Shown piece by piece: positions 17,753 through 28,303 of a stretch of DNA of 30,476 nucleotides. Positions within the stretch are counted from its first letter, which is position 1, and every line of letters starts with the position of its first letter. The notes under the pieces are model-generated. The model did not search any database. It saw only the letters and a program-made list of their open reading frames with translations, and had not been told where the DNA came from. The stretch is from a virus. Lineage: Duplodnaviria; Caudoviricetes. A program made the translations under genes and the position numbers. The DNA lies in IMG/VR virus record IMGVR_UViG_3300022697_000010, positions 1 through 30,476 of that record; one strand, written 5' to 3'.

Positions 17753-17822
17753 GGATTATCTGCTAAGATACCCTAAAATAGTCGAATATGAAGAAATATA
17801 GGGGGTCTATGTACGATTTCTC

Positions 17823-17855
17823 TTGACATTTGGTGAAAAATACGTATAACTATAG
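17823..17855 (+). promoter_or_regulatory. Divergent rightward promoter with the same motif
   Basis: TTGACA (17823-17828), N16, TATAAC (17845-17850), TATAG. Confidence 0.8.
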
Positions 17856-17942
17856 AACGTTAAGTTCCCCATTGGTAATATACTATCTATAGTTTATGAT
17901 ATATGGCCTATCTCTAGTGTCTGCTAGGGGTGGGCCTTTCTT
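17856..17942 (+). ncRNA. Candidate ~85-nt small RNA
   Basis: Bounded by the 17823 promoter and a 13-bp hairpin plus TTTCTT; no convincing ORF inside. Confidence 0.35.
17905..17942 (+). terminator. Intrinsic terminator
   Basis: GGCCTATCTCTAG-tgtctg-CTAGGGGTGGGCC-TTTCTT. The G-U pairs form only in the plus-strand RNA. Confidence 0.65.
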
Positions 17943-18050
17943 ATACGCCCTATATGTACATACTCTAGTAGTACTATAGTTATCCCGCACGGATATCCCT
18001 ATTTAGCTGGGTATAACCCTATTATCATCACTCATATTACCACCCATATA

Positions 18051-18088
18051 AGTCTAACCCACTAATTCTACGTTGTCAAGTCTTTTCT
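18051..18088 (-). promoter_or_regulatory. Second leftward promoter
   Basis: TTGACA-N17-TAGACT. The 16-mer ttgtcaagtcttttct (18073-18088) is identical to 8891-8906 of the capsid promoter. Confidence 0.6.
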
Positions 18089-18383
18089 TCTGGACGTTTG
18101 AAAGTATTTTACAGGCAGACCACTGCGCAGCACTGCTTTTGTACCTTATTACGGGTCTTTCAGACCAACCTACAGAGTACTTTAACCTCTGTTCTCTTCT
18201 CCCCCTCTCTTCTAAGATAAGTCAATGATTACAGGTACTTAACAGACCTCTGAACCCCCTCTGTGTGCTTGGGTGTATACAACTAACGCCCGAAAACCTC
18301 GGCCCACGCACCCCCTAAAAAGTTGGGGTAGCAGAATACCCCCAAAAATACCATAATTCTTTACCAAATGGTCAAATATCGTC

Positions 18384-18396
18384 TAAGTCATTGATT
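18384..18396. promoter_or_regulatory. IHF consensus site (a second, one-mismatch copy at 18218-18230)
   Basis: TAAGTCATTGATT matches the reverse complement of WATCAANNNNTTR. Confidence 0.45.
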
Positions 18397-18460
18397 TCAT
18401 TGGATAAAACAGGGTTAGAGAAGTGTATACACTACCTAGGGCAGAGTGCCACCAGAGAAA

Positions 18461-18578
18461 ACAACCATAGAGCACACTATATTAATAACACCGAATGTGT
18501 ACAACCAAGAGGCGAATAGGCCAGGAAAATACAACCGAGAGGCGAATACCTCCCCTAAAACAACCATAGGGGGAATCC
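18461..18578 (+). repeat. Four ACAACC-anchored direct repeats at 29-40 bp spacing
   Basis: acaaccatag (18461), acaaccaagaggcgaata (18501), acaaccgagaggcgaata (18531), acaaccatagggggaat (18560). Confidence 0.8.
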
Positions 18579-19509
18579 TCTAAAAAATTTCTACTTAAGG
18601 GGGAAAGAGGAGCTGGAGCTGGCAGAGTACACTTTTAGGTTGTATCAACCCGGACTAGACACACTTCCAGGTTGTAAATCCTTTCAGAGCCATTTTAAGG
18701 GGGGCTAGAGCGCCTCTAGCAGATTTCAGGTATGTCCACCCATAAAAGAGGCTAGCAACCATAGCGTGTAGAGTTTCAACTATAGGGCGAGTCCCTACGC
18801 GCGTGCGTGCGAACCTATAATCCGCGTAAAGGACATGAACACATTCTAATAAACGCATGAGACCGGGCAGTCTGTAACAATTAGTGATTAGACATTGCAG
18901 GCTAGATTTGCGACAAGGGGTTGCGACCCGCTCTTTATGACCACCTAGCAGGCGATCTATGCTAGGCCACTCGATACTGAACCGCGCATTGGTTCGGGTG
19001 ACATACTTGCGCTGGCAACTGTAGCACCAAAATGTGGTGCCAGATTGGACCTGAGTTTATATCAGATAAGGCTATGAGATTGTTTTAGGCGTCGATTAGC
19101 TGGATAGTATGCTAATATTACTGCACGCAAGAGGTGGGATATTAGGTGTTTCTGATAAGTAGGAAAGCAAGGGATAAGGTTTGGACGACATCACACTTAA
19201 GTGCTACTCGTTGAGTGCTTCGCTTGGCGCACAACTGCTTAAACTTCCCTTTGGGTGTAGTTGTGTGACCCTGAATAGACCCTGTCGGATAGCAACACGG
19301 GATCAGCGGAAACATTGTAGGGCATGGATGTGTCCCATTGACTAAAAGTCTAAACCGGTTCGCAAAACATTTCACTTGATTGCAGTCTAAACCTAAGACA
19401 GGCCAACCTGTTTGCGCTATGGCGTAGGGTTTGGATTGCATGAATACAGGACTGTTTAACTACGGTTCTGTTTTTGTGCAATCTCGCACGGCAATAGAAG
19501 GAAAGTACC

Positions 19510-21022: not shown

Positions 21023-21214
21023 ATGCTTACTAACTTTGTCGAAGGACGCTATGCCCTCAAGCGTGGGGATGAGTACCTTAAGGCAATGCCTCTTGGTACA
21101 CGTGAGTTTGCACCTAATGTTGACGAGGCTGTGTTGTTCTCTCTTGCTGAACATCTTGCCTTGCCTATCATGCGGGATGAACGTTGGGTTCTTATACAAA
21201 AGAGGGAGACTTAA
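21023..21214 (+). CDS. Hypothetical protein
   Basis: 63 aa, AAGGA RBS. Confidence 0.7.
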   Translation: MLTNFVEGRYALKRGDEYLKAMPLGTREFAPNVDEAVLFSLAEHLALPIMRDERWVLIQKRET

Positions 21215-21216
21215 CA

Positions 21217-21609
21217 ATGAACCGTGAGGATAGTGTAAGAGAGTTTATGGAAGCCTTTGGGCAGGCTGTAGACGGGCTATGGACTGAGGACATCCTTGAA
21301 CTTAGGTGCAAGCTGATAGCTGAGGAAGTCCAGGAAGTTATTGAGGAACTGTTTGACTACCAGACAGAGACTTGGATTGAACCGTCAAAGGTATCTAAGG
21401 CAAGGGTACTTAAGGAACTCACAGACCTACAGTACGTTGTCTCTGGTATGGCTGTTGCCCTAGGGCTTAACCTTGATGAGGCCTTTGAGCGTGTACACCG
21501 CAGCAATATGTCTAAGCTCTTGGACAATGGACAACCCCTCAAGCGTGAGGACGGGAAGGTCCTCAAGGGTCCTAACTATATCCCGCCTGTAATGGATGAT
21601 CTTGTTTAG
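21217..21609 (+). CDS. MazG-like / PRA-PH nucleotide pyrophosphohydrolase
   Basis: VREFMEAF..LIAEEVQE..KELTDLQYV..VHRSNMSK..REDGKVLKGPNY; start 21217 with GAGGGAG RBS. Confidence 0.9.
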   Translation: MNREDSVREFMEAFGQAVDGLWTEDILELRCKLIAEEVQEVIEELFDYQTETWIEPSKVSKARVLKELTDLQYVVSGMAVALGLNLDEAFERVHRSNMSKLLDNGQPLKREDGKVLKGPNYIPPVMDDLV

Positions 21610-21907: not shown

Positions 21908-21960
21908 TCCGTGTGATGATGTAACCTATTGGTTCAGTGCTAAATGGTGGAGGAAATTCA

Positions 21961-22278
21961 GTGAGACATGATGGTTTTAAGAAAGCTATGAGGCGTATGG
22001 ATGGGGGCCTTCCCTTGTCTTTCGAACCTAAGTTTCCCTCAGTCAAGAAAGTCGATAGGCTAAGCTGTCCTTTCCTCGAGGCTGGGGTTAGAATACTTAA
22101 GCACCTTGATGAAGGGACGTCTGTACGTGCCTTGAATCTTTTCTATTGGGTGACAACAGAACAAGGTGAAAATTACTGGAACGAGAGGGCTTATGAACGT
22201 GTCCCCCTTAGCGCTGATGATATAGCGTATATTCGTGACATTGGTAACTACTTCGTAGGGGTGAGGGCTTATGAGTAA
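21961..22278 (+). CDS. Hypothetical protein
   Basis: GTG start with GGAGG RBS; F.W..T.QG.NYW motif. Confidence 0.75.
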   Translation: MRHDGFKKAMRRMDGGLPLSFEPKFPSVKKVDRLSCPFLEAGVRILKHLDEGTSVRALNLFYWVTTEQGENYWNERAYERVPLSADDIAYIRDIGNYFVGVRAYE

Positions 22279-22708
22279 AGGTAACTTCAAAAGGTTTATG
22301 AGAGGACTTGACAATGGGAATGGTATTCTTAAGGAGGAGAGGGCTAACAACAGCGAAGCGAATAGCAAGACTACTAAGCCGCGAGTATGGAGTACCATCC
22401 AGGTCAACTCTGTCCTTGAGTCGGCAGGACTTACATTCAACACAGTTTTTAGTGCGGTGGGGTACAACGACACAAGCAGCCCTGACCCAGACCCTGAGTG
22501 TGATGAACCCTTCGCAGAGTATCAGAGCAATAGCAGACAAACGTGGCTTTCGCTCTTCCCTAATGAGTCTAGGTTCGGAGGCTTCATGTCTTACTGCACC
22601 TGCGACTTCTGCGCAGAAATACGTGCTACCTACGGTGTTCAAGAAGGAGAAACTCCCCACCATTACCGCGACAGGACAGCGGGTAGTACTCCGTCCAACT
22701 CGGCATAG
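22271..22708 (+). CDS. Possible overprinted acidic protein with CxCxxC
   Basis: ATG overlaps the end of the upstream gene, GAGG RBS, and the N-terminus echoes the upstream gene. About 395 nt overlap the ATP-grasp gene in another frame. Confidence 0.45.
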   Translation: MSKGNFKRFMRGLDNGNGILKEERANNSEANSKTTKPRVWSTIQVNSVLESAGLTFNTVFSAVGYNDTSSPDPDPECDEPFAEYQSNSRQTWLSLFPNESRFGGFMSYCTCDFCAEIRATYGVQEGETPHHYRDRTAGSTPSNSA

Positions 22709-23291
22709 TGGGGGTAGAAACTTCTTTGTTATCAATGACTTAGAGGGGCTACTTAATGTACTACATGAACACCCTGATGTGTTCCGAGATGGGTGGTATG
22801 CCTCACCTTTAATCAACAAAGTATCTGAGTATCGTGTAATGGTTATGCGTGGAAGGATTGTCTTCATTGCTGAGAAAGTACCTGCTGACAGATCAGAGGT
22901 GGTGTGGAACTTCAGGGGTGGCGGCATGTTCTACAATGTTAAGTGGGGTGACTGGCCTCTTGAGGTATGCCGAGCAGCACTATCTGTTGCTGAAGTATCC
23001 GGTACAGACTTCTCTGCTGTGGATATTATGGTGGGTGAAGATGGTAAGACTTGGTTCATTGAGGCTAACTCAGCACCGGGTATGCCCTGCTATGAAGGAC
23101 GGTACACCTACAGGCAGCACTGCCTAGCCAAAGCCTTCGCCTATCACTACCACAACAGAGAAGAATTGTTTGAGTACGTGGAGGAGATAGATAGTTGGAA
23201 GGATATTATCCACCCATGCCTACTGAGAGGCTCTAGGAGCGCCACTGAGGGGGCATTGAGTACTTCCATGAGTGACCATAGCCTAGAGTAG
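22314..23291 (+). CDS. ATP-grasp amide/peptide ligase (RimK/YheC-D-like, phage type)
   Basis: LVRWG..N...I...DK, RPTRHSGGRNF, EYRV.V, VWN...GG.F, DFSAVDI......FIEANSAPG; ATG at 22314 with AGAGGA RBS. Confidence 0.9.
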   Translation: MGMVFLRRRGLTTAKRIARLLSREYGVPSRSTLSLSRQDLHSTQFLVRWGTTTQAALTQTLSVMNPSQSIRAIADKRGFRSSLMSLGSEASCLTAPATSAQKYVLPTVFKKEKLPTITATGQRVVLRPTRHSGGRNFFVINDLEGLLNVLHEHPDVFRDGWYASPLINKVSEYRVMVMRGRIVFIAEKVPADRSEVVWNFRGGGMFYNVKWGDWPLEVCRAALSVAEVSGTDFSAVDIMVGEDGKTWFIEANSAPGMPCYEGRYTYRQHCLAKAFAYHYHNREELFEYVEEIDSWKDIIHPCLLRGSRSATEGALSTSMSDHSLE

Positions 23292-23339
23292 TTAGAGCCA
23301 GTCAGTGAGGCTTATACAGAGTGATAGGTATGGGGTGTG

Positions 23340-23457
23340 CGGGGTACTTTAGTACAACTATAGTACTATAAACTACTTATGTAACTAATTACTATCCTTA
23401 AGTACTACTTAAGTAAGTACTAAAGTATAGGGTAACACGGAGTTTACAAGATGTCAA
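23340..23457. other. AT-rich palindromic spacer with a leftward promoter (ori-like)
   Basis: TATAGTACTATA palindrome (23359-23370), TTAAGTA-C-TACTTAA inverted repeat (23398-23412), minus-strand TTGACA-N17-TACCCT at 23429-23457. Confidence 0.5.
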
Positions 23458-23909
23458 GACAAATATTTGTTGTAAAAGAACGAAGTGAAAAGGCTGCCGA
23501 AGCGCTGGCTGTGTGCAGTAAGGTCTTCGTTTATGGAACATTGAAGCGAGAGTACGGTAACAGTCGGCTCTTCAGCGGGGGTGGTGGGGATTTCCTTTGG
23601 GAGAGTTCCACACGTAAAGCCTTCGTGATGTATGATGCTGGCTGTCCTATGATTAAACCTAAAGAGTATGCCCTACAGGATGATGTTAACCCCTCTAAGA
23701 TCCTACCTGTGAAAGGTGAGGTCTGGCAGGTGAACACCGTAGACTGTATGGAGCGCCTTGATACACTTGAAGGTGAAGGTTACCTCTACCACAGACGGTT
23801 GGAGGAGACGAAGGATGGAACAAAGGTCTGGACTTATCAGGTCTTTGATTCTTTCTTTGAAGACTGTATGTTCGCAACAGAAGTAGAAGGAGAATGGGTA
23901 TGGCCTTGA
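23451..23909 (+). CDS. Gamma-glutamyl(amine) cyclotransferase (GGCT/AIG2-like)
   Basis: VFVYGTLK, VKGEVWQV, LDTLEG (catalytic Glu), Y.R, VWTY. Confidence 0.9.
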   Translation: MSRQIFVVKERSEKAAEALAVCSKVFVYGTLKREYGNSRLFSGGGGDFLWESSTRKAFVMYDAGCPMIKPKEYALQDDVNPSKILPVKGEVWQVNTVDCMERLDTLEGEGYLYHRRLEETKDGTKVWTYQVFDSFFEDCMFATEVEGEWVWP

Positions 23910-24805
23910 AGAAAGAGTTTGACTATGATGGGTACTGCACAGTCAGAGAGACGCGCAAGTTAACCCAAGCACCTAGGGTAGGCTTTGAGTGGGAGGTTCC
24001 TCTCGACTTCAGCGAGGTGGCACCCGATGCTACTGGTAATGTGTACTATGACGATGAGGAGGGGGAGGACGCCAAGTATGAGGAGGCTGAGGCTATCCTG
24101 TCAGATGAGTTCGACGACTTCACTGAAAACAATAGGTTCAACTACCATCTTGAGTGTGGTGGCATGGAGTTCCAGTCGCCCTGCTTTCAAACATTGACAA
24201 CAGCTAAAAGCTTTGCTGGTCTGTTAAAAGCAGAGATTGAGGGTAAGAAATACCTGTTCGACTTCGACCAACACGATGAGCAAGACTGTGGGATACACGT
24301 CCATGTGTCAGACCATACGGATCGTGTCAGTAACATTGACTACATCAACCTAGGTCTTATGTTAGGGTACCTTGATGAGGATGCCTTCATCTTTGATCTG
24401 TCGGGGAGGCAAGAAGGTAAGTACTATTCTGCCCAGGCCCGTCCCTACATTATGCTAGGGGCTAACCGTAGGTGCCTATTCCTCCTTAAGCAGGATAAGA
24501 TTTCGTTTGAGATCCGTAGGCATATTGAGATGTATATGGGAAGGTGCCTTCGTTACAACCTGATGGGTACTGCAGAGTTCAGACTGTTCTCACCTCAACC
24601 AAAAGTTCTAGTACCAGCTATCGAGTTTGCACACAGCACCTTTAAGTTTATCAAGAGGTATCGCAACAAGGGACGGTCACCTACCCTTATGGAGTACAAG
24701 AAGTGGCTTATGAAACAGAAAGGGTACAAGACTCTTAAGAACTACGGTGACTTTGATCTTATTAAAAACAGAAAGAAAGGCTTCAATCATGGCTATAAAG
24801 CGTAG
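23894..24805 (+). CDS. Amidoligase (COOH-NH2 ligase, glutamine-synthetase fold), copy 1
   Basis: VGFEWE, MEFQSP, CGIHVHVS, AEFRLF. Confidence 0.8.
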   Translation: MGMALKKEFDYDGYCTVRETRKLTQAPRVGFEWEVPLDFSEVAPDATGNVYYDDEEGEDAKYEEAEAILSDEFDDFTENNRFNYHLECGGMEFQSPCFQTLTTAKSFAGLLKAEIEGKKYLFDFDQHDEQDCGIHVHVSDHTDRVSNIDYINLGLMLGYLDEDAFIFDLSGRQEGKYYSAQARPYIMLGANRRCLFLLKQDKISFEIRRHIEMYMGRCLRYNLMGTAEFRLFSPQPKVLVPAIEFAHSTFKFIKRYRNKGRSPTLMEYKKWLMKQKGYKTLKNYGDFDLIKNRKKGFNHGYKA

Positions 24806-26096
24806 ACTTGAGCGGGACGGTAACACTTACATCTGGCCTCGGGCTAGCAGTGAGGTTATCTACGTTGATGTGGAGGGTAATTCTCTTACGAGTTCGGAGT
24901 GCTACTTCTTCGGCCCTAACTTTCATAAACTTTACCCAGACATTCGGACATACCGTGACTTGTATGAGCAGTGGATAGAACCTAACAGGTCGGCTGTGGT
25001 AGTACAGTCTGATGAGGGGTGTGGCTTAGCCCAGACTATCCTTAGCTTCGTCTGTCGTCAGCTAACGTCACAAGGGGTCTGGACTGAAGACCTTATCGAG
25101 CATGCTTACACAAGGGACTTGGACAACCCTTTGATCCGCATACTAAGTATACCTGATGACTTACGCCTACTTCTTCCTGACCTTACCACTCCCTTTTTCA
25201 TGAGTACTGACTCAAGGGGTAGGTCTTGGTACCCTGACAGGAAGGCCCAACCAGTTGATAGTAAGTGGTCTAGCCATCATAACTACTCTTACAAGATGGG
25301 TTCAGAAGACTTCAACTTCTACCGCTCGCTTCACAAGAGTAACTCTGAGTTATACTTTGGTCTTGAGTTAGAGATTAACACCAAGCTTTCAGCCGAGGAG
25401 ATACAGAGTATCGTCACAGACTTTGAGCCTAAGCAAGAGCCTTTCTTTATCTTCAAGCAGGACGCTTCCATCGGTGGGCGCTATCAGAATAACCTTGAGA
25501 TTGTCACAGTGCCTTGCTCACCTAGCTACCTTAAGAAGAACTTCAGGGTCTTCTTCAAGAAGCTTCGGCACCTAGCCGCTAAGAAAGATATCCAGTTATC
25601 TTCTTTAATCGAGATGGAGAATGTAAACAGTAACGGACTACACATTCATGTGAGTAAGGATGCTTTCCTCTACCGCTTCCATAAGAATAGGTTCATTACA
25701 TTGATGAACAGTGATAGGAGAGACAACAAAAACTTCTTCGCTCTGTTGTCTAAGCGTAGCAGGTACTGGGAGAATAGCTACTGCTTTATTGATAGTTCTT
25801 ACCGTGGCGTACGTCCAGCCTATGCTATCAAGAGTACTCGGGGCAGCTCTGAACGTCACTCTGTCTGCCACTCACTCGCCCCGGCTACTATTGAAGTGAG
25901 ACTCTTCTCAGGCATCCCGGACATTGAACACATCTGTAGCTGCATCGAGTTCACTGAGGCTATCTTCAACTTCACTCGGTTCAACAGTGTATCCTCTATC
26001 TCTAATAGCTTTATACCAGACTTCAAGAGGTGGCTAGGTAAGCAGTCAAGGAACAAGTACCGTAGCCTAACTAAGAGGGTCAAGCAATGTGCTTAA
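24789..26096 (+). CDS. Amidoligase (COOH-NH2 ligase), copy 2, with N-terminal extension
   Basis: YFGLELE, KQDASI, LEIVTVP, GLHIHVS, TIEVRLF. The ATG at 24789 is preferred as start. Confidence 0.85.
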   Translation: MAIKRRLERDGNTYIWPRASSEVIYVDVEGNSLTSSECYFFGPNFHKLYPDIRTYRDLYEQWIEPNRSAVVVQSDEGCGLAQTILSFVCRQLTSQGVWTEDLIEHAYTRDLDNPLIRILSIPDDLRLLLPDLTTPFFMSTDSRGRSWYPDRKAQPVDSKWSSHHNYSYKMGSEDFNFYRSLHKSNSELYFGLELEINTKLSAEEIQSIVTDFEPKQEPFFIFKQDASIGGRYQNNLEIVTVPCSPSYLKKNFRVFFKKLRHLAAKKDIQLSSLIEMENVNSNGLHIHVSKDAFLYRFHKNRFITLMNSDRRDNKNFFALLSKRSRYWENSYCFIDSSYRGVRPAYAIKSTRGSSERHSVCHSLAPATIEVRLFSGIPDIEHICSCIEFTEAIFNFTRFNSVSSISNSFIPDFKRWLGKQSRNKYRSLTKRVKQCA

Positions 26097-27034
26097 TTAT
26101 ACACAAGAAGCCTAACTTTGATATACCTTACGACAAGTTTGAGTCGGCTGTTATCAACAATCCTGATGGGTACGGACTGACCTACCCTGACGGTAACGGT
26201 AAGCTACACACCTACCGTACACCTGACAAGCCTGACCCTGAGGTTCTCTACAAGGAAGTTAATGAGGAGTTGGGTGGGGCAGACGTACTGTTGCACCTGC
26301 GGTTCAACACGGCGGGGGAGACTAACCTTCGTAATGCCCATCCCTTCTCTATCCTTGAGAAAGCTACCGATGGTATAGACCTACGTATGGCACACAACGG
26401 TACCATCTATGACTATAAGACTAAGGCAGAGGTAGGTGAGAGTGATACCAGAGCCTTCGCTAGGCTATTCGTTCGGCCATTGTTCAAGCGGCTGAGCAAA
26501 GGAATGGACCTCGTGGATATACTCAAGGACCCATTCACTAAGGAGTTGCTTGAGGATAAACTTCCTAAGACTTCTGTGCTGTCTTTCCTTGACGGTGAAG
26601 GCAACTCACTCAACATCAATCCGACAGGTAATGGGGGCAAGGAAGAGAAGGGATGGTACTACAGTAACGTCTACTCTTTCAACCCTAACCATAGAAAACC
26701 TACCTACCCTAAGACTTACCAGACTTACGGTTATGATTCAGACTACTACAAGAGACCTAACTACAACAACAACTACTTGCCTACTACGACTAAGCAACCT
26801 GAAATGACAGAGGATATGAATGTGGAACGGTTTACTAAGAAGTTTGATCTTACTCTTAAGCAAGTGTACACAATGGCTGATGAGACGATTGAAGAGTTGG
26901 TGCTGATGGATGGTGACAGTGCTGTCCTTCTCATCAAGGAGTTGTTGGCAACCGCACAAGGGTTGGAGGAGAGCCGAGGTAAAGCCCTCTCGCAGTTGGT
27001 CGTACTCAAGAAGAAGGTAGGGGGTGCGAAATGA
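26087..27034 (+). CDS. Class II (Ntn) glutamine amidotransferase
   Basis: M-C N-terminus (nucleophilic Cys1), NNPDGYG, HLRFNTAG, NAHPF, HNG, SDT. Confidence 0.9.
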   Translation: MCLIIHKKPNFDIPYDKFESAVINNPDGYGLTYPDGNGKLHTYRTPDKPDPEVLYKEVNEELGGADVLLHLRFNTAGETNLRNAHPFSILEKATDGIDLRMAHNGTIYDYKTKAEVGESDTRAFARLFVRPLFKRLSKGMDLVDILKDPFTKELLEDKLPKTSVLSFLDGEGNSLNINPTGNGGKEEKGWYYSNVYSFNPNHRKPTYPKTYQTYGYDSDYYKRPNYNNNYLPTTTKQPEMTEDMNVERFTKKFDLTLKQVYTMADETIEELVLMDGDSAVLLIKELLATAQGLEESRGKALSQLVVLKKKVGGAK

Positions 27035-27600
27035 ATATCAAGCAGAGCATACTGTCTGACTCAGCGGACAACTACACACCTGACCTGACATCTATGAGGT
27101 TCTACGGTGAGGCTATCCCTGTGTTCATCTGGGATACCTTACGTTCCTTCAGGGCGTTTAAGGATAGGCTCCCACGCCTCATAGAGTACAAGGACTACAG
27201 GACTATGTGGTTCTCTGCTGAGACTACTGGTACTGGTGTTGTATTTGAGAACAAGGATAAGTTCGGCAACGCATATAGCCACTACCTCTTGACTAACAAG
27301 AATGATATTGAACAGGTTAGTCTGACAGGCACTAAGTCTTTACCTATAGGGGGCCACCTTATCCACTGCAACCTTAAGGCACTGACTGAACTTGACTTTC
27401 ACTATGGCAACGGGTATAATTTCACCCGTACTAAAATACAAATCCGTAATAAATTCTCTAAGAAGATAGCTACAGTCTATGCCTACATCAACAATGCTAA
27501 TCACTTAACTTACTTTGAAGATGGTGTGACAGAGTTCTATGAGGGTATCGACTTAGTTGAAATGGAAGCAAGGACAGGAGTATCCTATCAGGTTTACTGA
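27031..27600 (+). CDS. Degenerate GGCT/AIG2-like protein
   Basis: VFIWDTLR, IGGHLI, LTELDFHYGNG..F.R, VYAY align with GGCT motifs, but the catalytic Glu appears replaced. Confidence 0.55.
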   Translation: MNIKQSILSDSADNYTPDLTSMRFYGEAIPVFIWDTLRSFRAFKDRLPRLIEYKDYRTMWFSAETTGTGVVFENKDKFGNAYSHYLLTNKNDIEQVSLTGTKSLPIGGHLIHCNLKALTELDFHYGNGYNFTRTKIQIRNKFSKKIATVYAYINNANHLTYFEDGVTEFYEGIDLVEMEARTGVSYQVY

Positions 27601-28303
27601 GTTTAGAATTGGAAAGGCTACCTTCGATCAATGTGTAGAACTATACTCAAGGCAGCTTATCTACCGAGTACGAAAGCAAGCACAACACACACAAAACCTT
27701 ATGTGTATGTCTGGAGTTATACTACCCACCAGTGACAGGGTAGGTGATGTACACCCTAGGTTTATAACAAAGGAGTATGCTCAATACATCATTGACTCAC
27801 TAGGCTATTCATGCCGAGCGTCAGGCCGGGCTATGTACCAGCACTTGAAGCACTTCAGGTTCGTGAAAGTTAATCCTTTCGTAGGTACTGTAGACGCCCC
27901 ACCTAAGCCTAAGCAGATACCTATTCAATGGACAGCAGAGGAGAAGGATAGGTTCTACACCTGTGCCTTCACTCGCTTAACTACCACTGGCATTGGCATG
28001 ATAGCCCTCTTGTCTGAGTACTCAGGCCACTCCATGTACAGGATCAATAAGCTTACACAGTCTGACTATGCTGACGGTATCATAACGATAGCAGGTGAGG
28101 CTATAGCTCTTGACGAAGGTACTAAAGGTATGATGGACCAACAAGTAAACATATCTGGGGGCAACCCTTGGCTGTTCCCTAGTCTAACTAAAGAGTTCCC
28201 CTTGAAAAATATAAAGTCTGCCTTCAACGCTGTGAGGGATAGAGCGGGACTACCTAAACATCTAACTATTAATGGGATTACAAAATGTACACTACAAGAG
28301 TAG
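27557..28303 (+). CDS. Tyrosine-integrase-like protein lacking catalytic residues
   Basis: NPF, WTAEE..F, L...SG....I..L...D, WLFPS, F..VRDRAGLPKHL. The box I Arg and HxxR are absent and the protein ends before the catalytic Tyr. Confidence 0.6.
   Translation: MKWKQGQEYPIRFTEFRIGKATFDQCVELYSRQLIYRVRKQAQHTQNLMCMSGVILPTSDRVGDVHPRFITKEYAQYIIDSLGYSCRASGRAMYQHLKHFRFVKVNPFVGTVDAPPKPKQIPIQWTAEEKDRFYTCAFTRLTTTGIGMIALLSEYSGHSMYRINKLTQSDYADGIITIAGEAIALDEGTKGMMDQQVNISGGNPWLFPSLTKEFPLKNIKSAFNAVRDRAGLPKHLTINGITKCTLQE

Follow-up and report, generated by a model that had tools for sequence, protein, structure and literature searches.

Cassettes of amide-handling enzymes in podoviruses were reportedly described by Iyer et al. 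2009 and Hardies et al. 2013, according to the papers that cite them. In the phages RIO-1, phiEco32, LUZ24, PA11 and CW02, this cassette consists of two amidoligases, an ATP-grasp ligase, a glutamine amidotransferase (GATase) and a GGCT, and has been regarded as a hypothetical cell-wall modifier (PMC5498523). A passage of PMC4819975 calls the same cassette an operon for gamma-glutamyl amide linkages, and excerpts of PMC10580990 and PMC3890496 name further phages that carry it. In Clostridium prophages, too, pairs of amidoligases accompany a GGCT (PMC11318856). Here we analysed a six-gene block of this kind in the virus record IMGVR_UViG_3300022697_000010. The window is this whole record, with 30,476 nt and a completeness of about 56%. 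The cassette type itself has been described since 2009; the version carried by this lineage is new. Judged from its sequences, the block probably performs glutamyl ligation and removal on a cytoplasmic amine.

A conserved six-gene block

Six co-directional open reading frames (ORFs) on the plus strand, named A to F, span positions 22314-27600. Gene starts were picked by ribosome-binding-site spacing:

A, 22314-23291, plus strand: ATP-grasp ligase, RimK/MptN/GshB-like (phrog_2599, 2.8e-20)
B, 23451-23909, plus strand: gamma-glutamylamine cyclotransferase (GGACT/AIG2; PF06094, 2.2e-12, above cut-off)
C, 23900-24805, plus strand: optional second amidoligase of the GS/GCS fold, in a clade of its own
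D, 24789-26096, plus strand: core Amidoligase_2-like ligase of the GS/GCS fold (residues ~182-435); its N-terminal domain is variable and of no recognised fold
E, 26087-27034, plus strand: class-II (N-terminal nucleophile, Ntn) GATase/gamma-glutamyl hydrolase with a C-terminal helical extension
F, 27031-27600, plus strand: GGCT fold without the catalytic Glu, with an N-terminal T-P-D arm

Four of the five junctions overlap (B/C by 10 nt, C/D by 17 nt, D/E by 10 nt, E/F by 4 nt), and an AT-rich gap of 159 nt separates A from B. The terminase, portal and capsid genes lie on the minus strand and the block in the opposite, early arm, so that an earlier note, which had described six consecutive, mostly overlapping early genes, was right on this arrangement. 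All six are genuine genes, and each of the folds is upheld. The folds it had proposed were recovered in profile and model searches (phrog_2599 for A, GGACT for B, the GS fold for C and D, GATase_4 for E and GGCT for F), and alignments and models show intact catalytic residues in A to E, the five genes said to retain their signature motifs.

Three scans yielded 58 loci (4, 23 and 31). Together with the window, 32 of these form a core set, which collapses to 22 groups at 95% identity in D, all of them uncultured phages; the other 26 loci are distant. Wherever the flank suffices, A is present in 16/16, B in 18/18, E in 21/21 and F in 19/19 groups, and D directly precedes E in 21/21, so the genes do co-occur in other phages. 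Profile E-values for the scanned loci are circular; independently of profiles, searches with single window proteins recover the orthologues of all six genes in each of four independent loci (E 1e-7 to 4e-76). Purifying selection acts on all genes, with ratios of non-synonymous to synonymous substitution rates (dN/dS) mostly of 0.03-0.3.

The large terminase subunit (TerL) of the window is 70-73% identical to those of the roseophages CRP-603, CRP-2 and HMO-2011, and its capsid protein is 55% identical to that of CRP-603. This bears out the supposed setting in a marine alphaproteobacterial podovirus, where the likeness to the HMO-2011 type is one of TerL and capsid in a 56%-complete fragment without replication hallmark genes. 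The core genomes G001 and G004 have a window-like TerL and capsid, and G003 has a cobavirus-type TerL (64-69% to ICBM1, P12053L and SIO1). By these sequence comparisons, the block has moved between two virion types of roseobacter phages, HMO-2011-like and cobavirus-like. Close copies were absent from cultured phages: tblastn against 50,697 phage records returned one weak match or none for D and none for F, and the A to F profiles had no match in the early arm of CRP-603. A pattern scan of bacterial genome contigs, which detects close relatives only, gave no chromosomal copies. A jumbo virus record with one 441-kb contig (L027 and L030) has four to six amidoligase-like genes per array, together with as many as three GATase-like ones.

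The enzymes and the probable pseudo-enzyme of the block

In the case of D, the residues E193, E195, D225, E237, H285, H287, R323, E369 and R371 are invariant in 115/115 sequences, and its structural model superposes on YbdK with a Z-score of 11.7 (root-mean-square deviation 4.3, 218 residues aligned). Among sequence profiles, phrog_2443 matched at 0.002, and PF12224 (Amidoligase_2) had no match in the D of the window and matched 7/30 D homologues, at best at 2.5e-5. Relatives of D are numerous, with 125 at E<=1e-30 among 50%-identity cluster representatives. Its N-terminal domain, for which no structure match was found in the Atlas, evolves faster than the ligase domain, with a column identity of 0.27 vs 0.51 and dN/dS of 0.18-0.53 vs 0.07-0.18 (5 pairs). 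The C-terminus of many D proteins is Cys-Ala or Cys-Val, which is a by-product of the overlap with the Met-Cys start of E and no motif.

C had no Pfam or PHROG match (PF12224, 0/7 C members). Its AlphaFold model (predicted template-modelling score 0.85) matches viral amidoligases, 27 of them at E<=0.001 and the best at 1.7e-6, as well as YbdK and GS, and HHalign of C to D gave 98.4%. Conserved residues are E32, E34, E92, H135, H137, R172, E228 and R230 (numbered from 23894). C and D thus both belong to the GS/GCS carboxylate-amine ligase superfamily by their fold and by their ExE, E, HxH, R and ExR residues, whose catalytic roles we take to be those of GS and GCS. The models of both also match GCS2 and plant GCL folds, in addition to GmaS and naphthylamine GS-like ligases; PafA appears only at rank 47 (Foldseek, D model), and searches of PDB sequences with the C and D profiles gave nothing useful. 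The earlier note had taken C and D for duplicated amidoligases. In an unrooted tree, which left out five cultured reference rows and the D of locus L046 (trimming motif not found), C forms a clade with 100/100 support on a long branch, outside D and the distant relatives of D, and a recent duplication of D was therefore rejected. C is present in 8 of the 22 groups, absent in 11, where B abuts D, and undecidable in 3. Most genomes without C cluster in this unrooted tree, which suggests that this state may have arisen by loss.

The best NCBIfam matches of A were RimK, MptN, GshB and LysX, all below cut-off and with no Ddl model among the matches listed (rimK_fam, 1.5e-4 for the window and 1.3e-11 for the orthologue in L032). 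With 21 bits against a RimK family cut-off of 143, the comparison to RimK is a statement on how A may work and not on its membership. Residues K78, E174, D239 and E252-x-N254 are kept in at least 90% of 13 orthologues (numbered from 22308), and the local A profile finds the ATP-grasps of RIO-1, 7-11 and phiM6 at 2e-23 to 1e-15.

E matches PF13230 (GATase_4) at 2.7e-6, above cut-off. Among 27 sequences C2 is kept in at least 90%, and R72, H103-N104-G105 and D120 are invariant; the N-terminal Cys, the Arg, the Asn-Gly oxyanion pair and the Asp presumably play the roles that they have in class-II GATases. The best PDB match was 1te5, and the best families were not PurF or GlmS. As a single-protein query against viral contigs, E had no match.

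Both B and F have the GGCT fold. B carries the YG(S/T)L motif, and its Y28-G29, L103-D104, E107 and Y113 are invariant in 18/18 sequences; in alignments to 2kl2 and 1vkb, E107 falls on the catalytic Glu of GGACT, a role treated in a section of bioRxiv 2025.01.15.633182. The same source describes, in part, how this family cuts gamma-glutamyl-amines such as gamma-Glu-epsilon-Lys. F is more distant. Alone it reached E 0.076 with the GGACT profile (E<=0.1 for 14/17 family members), its profile gave only weak AIG2-like matches among PDB sequences, and its template-modelling score against GGACT models was 0.57-0.58; HHalign aligned F to B at 87%, with Y125 of F opposite E107 of B. At this position Glu was found in 0/29 and Tyr in 27/29 F sequences; the next column has Glu in 5/29 and is not conserved. 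WD invariantly replaces YG. The sixth gene had been read as a degenerate GGCT: the fold stands, and the degeneration is confined to the catalytic site. T16, D18, R23, F32, D35, G108 and R133 are kept in 29/29 sequences despite a median identity of 25%, and dN/dS is 0.025-0.29, so a decaying pseudogene was rejected. F is thus likely a maintained, non-catalytic pseudo-enzyme. Because the T-P-D arm is common to the GATase-adjacent, Glu-bearing GGCTs of phiM6, RHph_N3_19, L014 and L054, F likely derived from an active cyclotransferase once B supplied the activity.

Described relatives and neighbouring features

With the phiEco32/RIO-1 type, the block shares an ATP-grasp ligase, an Amidoligase_2 ligase, a class-II GATase and a GGCT in an early podovirus block, so the link to this neighbourhood drawn in the earlier note stands. 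The total of three ligases is matched when C is present. However, the PF14395 COOH-NH2 ligase of the known type is replaced here by the separate C clade: PF14395 was found in 0/3 lineage genomes (the window, the complete G001 and G004), with 2/2 positive controls above cut-off, and a local profile of six PF14395-type sequences gave nothing below E 0.78 in the lineage loci. Further differences are the two GGCT folds, one of them Glu-less, another gene order, and a distance too large for tblastn. Since PF14395 is absent in 3/3 genomes, we filed the block as a variant that works like the known cassette and not as a strict member. The suggestion of an undescribed variant is therefore upheld, though not for the duplication on which it was based, as two GS-fold ligases with an ATP-grasp are found in known cassettes (PMC5498523), and pairs of amidoligases with a GGCT in Clostridium prophages (PMC11318856). 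What sets the block apart is that it has lost the PF14395 ligase, has C as an optional clade, keeps a conserved F that is Glu-less and carries an overlapping ORF.

The closest cultured homologues of E (2e-43 and 6e-39, local profile) lie in phiM6 (gp70-79, Sinorhizobium) and RHph_N3_19 (gp29-44, Rhizobium), alphaproteobacterial podoviruses with a TerL 56-57% identical to that of the window. In both, the GATase is followed by a GGCT with a T-P-D arm as in F. They differ in that this GGCT is Glu-bearing and in that a PF14395-type ligase, a C26 peptidase and a second GATase are present; no separate B-type GGCT was found in the stretch examined, and no X motif (see below). Other Glu-less GGCT-fold proteins named in sections of bioRxiv 2025.01.15.633182 are E. 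coli YtfP and part 2 of Paulinella crTP, along with the two-domain YkqA. In crTP_ArgC the equivalent of Glu82 has become Tyr, as in F, with the fold kept, whereas the invariant WD for YG, the T-P-D arm and an active paralogue in an enzyme operon are found in F alone when it is compared with YtfP and crTP. In the literature searched we found neither a biochemical test of the cassette, as the earlier note had also said, nor a description of this lineage's version; the main text of PMC9038755, on HMO-2011-type phages, does not mention the cassette, nor do the excerpts found of a review on jumbo phages deal with it. The Klebsiella protein CfmP was considered and set aside as unrelated, its ATP-grasp being of the TupA type.

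The overlapping ORF, missed by the earlier note, and the spacer between A and B are:

ORF X, 22271-22708, plus strand: putative seventh gene of 145 aa, in the +2 frame relative to A, whose 5' third it covers
A-B spacer, 23292-23457, minus strand: AT-rich and palindrome-dense, with a leftward sigma70-like promoter (-35 at 23457, 17-nt spacer) over the start of B

X begins 43 nt upstream of the start of A, and its frame is open in 11/13 distinct full-length A loci (exceptions L046 and L048). Stops in this frame number 25 in 1,649 codons of the 5' part of A, 20 of them from L046 and L048, vs 202 in 2,342 codons further on. By codon resampling, 5.6-10.5 stops were expected per open locus and 0-2 seen (p<=0.002 each; these loci are kin, so the p values are not independent). 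An ATG or GTG start with a purine-rich stretch upstream was found in 12/12 loci examined, where the N-terminus of X carries a basic amphipathic motif resembling GF-x-x-FM-x-KL(D/E)G, which also heads small separate early genes. With a profile trained on X starts, the motif was detected in 13/22 core groups and 0/33 other loci. X had no PHROG match. Against X as a gene, the proportion of non-synonymous differences in its frame exceeds that of synonymous ones in 5/5 pairs, with no selection detected beyond stop avoidance; moreover, its length varies, and synonymous divergence of A is only slightly lower in the overlap (4/5 pairs). Altogether, reading-frame evidence points to X as a likely seventh gene overlapping A. 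A conserved carrier of a C-terminal tag, LysW- or Pup-like, was rejected as the C-termini of X vary. The small early genes headed by the 18-residue motif form a family of up to four per locus with weak phrog_16354 and phrog_10949 matches; members include 21937-22278 in the window, L007:13480-13803, L032:7418-7813 and L011:7319-7981, among others. In RIO-1, an amidoligase tail extends over the 5' end of the ATP-grasp gene in that +2 frame, which stays open for 131 codons, and such a same-frame overlap was not seen in 10 other reference ATP-grasps. The annotated RIO-1 amidoligase gp13 overlaps the ATP-grasp gp14 by ~400 nt (L065, 5911-7627), and HP1 appears similar.

The A-B spacer has the joint-highest 6-mer palindrome density within the window. 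A minus-strand promoter element occurs at -141..+6 of B in 6/15 groups with A upstream of B (window, L009, L045, L046, L048, L049), where the background rate predicts ~0.2. It reads into the AT-rich palindromic tract towards A and could be a primer promoter of a replication origin or serve antisense control of A. The same promoter with an AT-rich tract was also seen near the left end of L009, L012, L032, L036 and L040.

Around the block, a MazG/PRA-PH-like nucleotide pyrophosphohydrolase is encoded upstream (21184-21609). In relatives, integrase-like and primase-helicase genes come after the block. The integrase-like gene that comes after F in the window (27557-28303), which a local profile of HMO-2011-type integrases matches at E 1.2e-5, stops ~50 profile positions short, and full-length integrases follow F in L004, L006 and L007. 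A second palindrome-rich, largely non-coding region with short direct repeats lies between the terminase small subunit and the early arm (17800-19500) and is likely the genome terminus.

Proposed glutamyl chemistry and its alternatives

No 19-residue segment in any of the six genes exceeds a Kyte-Doolittle value of 1.31. As no hydrophobic segment was found in A to F, membrane or secreted action was ruled out, and all six proteins would act in the cytoplasm. Glutamate chemistry is argued for by the matches of D and C to YbdK, GCS2, GCL and GS, by the RimK likeness of A, by the intact GGACT site of B and by the GATase_4 match of E. Reading every reaction step from family chemistry, we propose that D, optionally with C, would couple an acceptor amine to the gamma-carboxyl of glutamate in an ATP-dependent manner, that A would add or extend glutamate, and that gamma-glutamyl groups would be taken off again by B and E. 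The part of F would be to bind either the tagged product or the GATase, without cutting. Members of the amidoligase family have a GATase-like peptidase as neighbour in some cases and an AIG2 cyclotransferase in others, according to a passage of PMC2588565; since either can adjoin the ligase, both may be gamma-glutamyl removers. Comparable pairs of a GS-fold or ATP-grasp ligase with a GATase-type hydrolase or cyclotransferase are known from PafA/Dop pupylation and from butirosin synthesis, where a section of bioRxiv 2025.01.15.633182 describes BtrG deprotection as part of a gamma-glutamyl protect/deprotect system. Unlike in these systems, no substrate gene or Pup-like conserved C-terminal tag was found here. 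EgtA/EgtC and PuuA/PuuD reportedly work by gamma-glutamyl protection and deprotection, too.

The variable N-terminal domain of D, the RimK likeness of A and the lack of conserved tailoring genes favour a protein as the acceptor, which we put forward tentatively, at somewhat less than even chances. The presence of the block in HMO-2011-like and cobavirus-like roseobacter phages fits a host-specific target, and a purpose in host takeover or anti-defence may be weakly inferred. A phage-built reversible protein tagging system, with D and A as writers, B, E and possibly a Dop-like C as erasers, F as a dedicated reader descended from a cyclotransferase, and the Lys/Arg-rich amphipathic motif on X and its small paralogues as acceptor or scaffold, in roseophages of two unrelated virion types, is a highly improbable extension of this. 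Several points weigh against glutamylation of a protein. GGACT needs a gamma-glutamyl group with a free alpha-amino group, which suits the protection and deprotection of small molecules as well as proteins. The N-terminal domain of D has dN/dS <1 and shows no positive selection, A lies under every family cut-off and has a weak Pfam match to the Ddl C-terminal domain (0.005), and a GATase follows D in 23/26 distant loci (not de-duplicated), as in a glutamine-dependent amidation pair. No substrate, product or phenotype was found for any member, and the published view is cell-wall modification (PMC5498523).

According to that view, which an excerpt of PMC10580990 also takes, the cassette would modify cytoplasmic peptidoglycan precursors by placing glutamate or an amide on the stem peptide, leading to superinfection resistance. 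The nearly universal D-E adjacency is in line with this. As we understand it, the precursors are cytoplasmic with a free amine and carboxyl, and GATase-ligase pairs amidate them elsewhere; the gamma-D-Glu of the stem presumably lacks a free alpha-amine, however, so that B would be unable to cleave it in place. RimK is closer to A than Ddl is, the amidoligase fold occurs in Catovirus, a giant virus of a wall-less host (rank 48, E 0.014), and has been reported from a putative archaeal virus (PMC11706807), and the cell-wall role is a hypothesis only in the cited literature. Altogether we consider this unlikely. A small biosynthetic pathway seems rather unlikely; in it, a small amine would be protected or activated by gamma-glutamylation and coupled by A, and deprotection by B or E would release a peptide-like metabolite, e.g. 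an anti-defence or nitrogen-storage molecule. Such a pathway would follow the logic of BtrG, the matches of the D and C models to GmaS and naphthylamine GS-like ligases agree with it, and for ligases of this family a passage of PMC2588565 suggests peptide metabolites resembling glutathione; on the other hand, no conserved tailoring, precursor-supply or export gene lies near the cassette, and the dispensability of C (11 groups) and the varying content of related cassettes are unlike a fixed pathway.

E could also donate ammonia that is channelled to D for the amidation (-0.98 Da) of a protein or metabolite carboxylate, with B and F recycling by-products. E does have a full class-II GATase site and follows D in 21/21 core groups and most distant loci, but it is closest to the stand-alone GATase_4 group, and a cyclotransferase, which cannot donate ammonia, can replace the GATase beside the ligase. 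This makes amidation improbable, and we retain glutamyl ligation and removal as the preferred reading.

Since 2009 the product of such cassettes, with their five or six amide-handling enzymes in many podoviruses, has not been named. The lineage described here offers a stripped version of five to six genes without the PF14395 ligase and, with C and X each present in some genomes and absent from others, a natural deletion series; its pseudo-enzyme F could act as an affinity bait for the product. The phages that carry the block are related to highly abundant marine groups, the HMO-2011-type phages and the cobaviruses, of which the cultured members checked are without it. If host proteins are indeed tagged, this would add a new class of post-translational control to those of phages.

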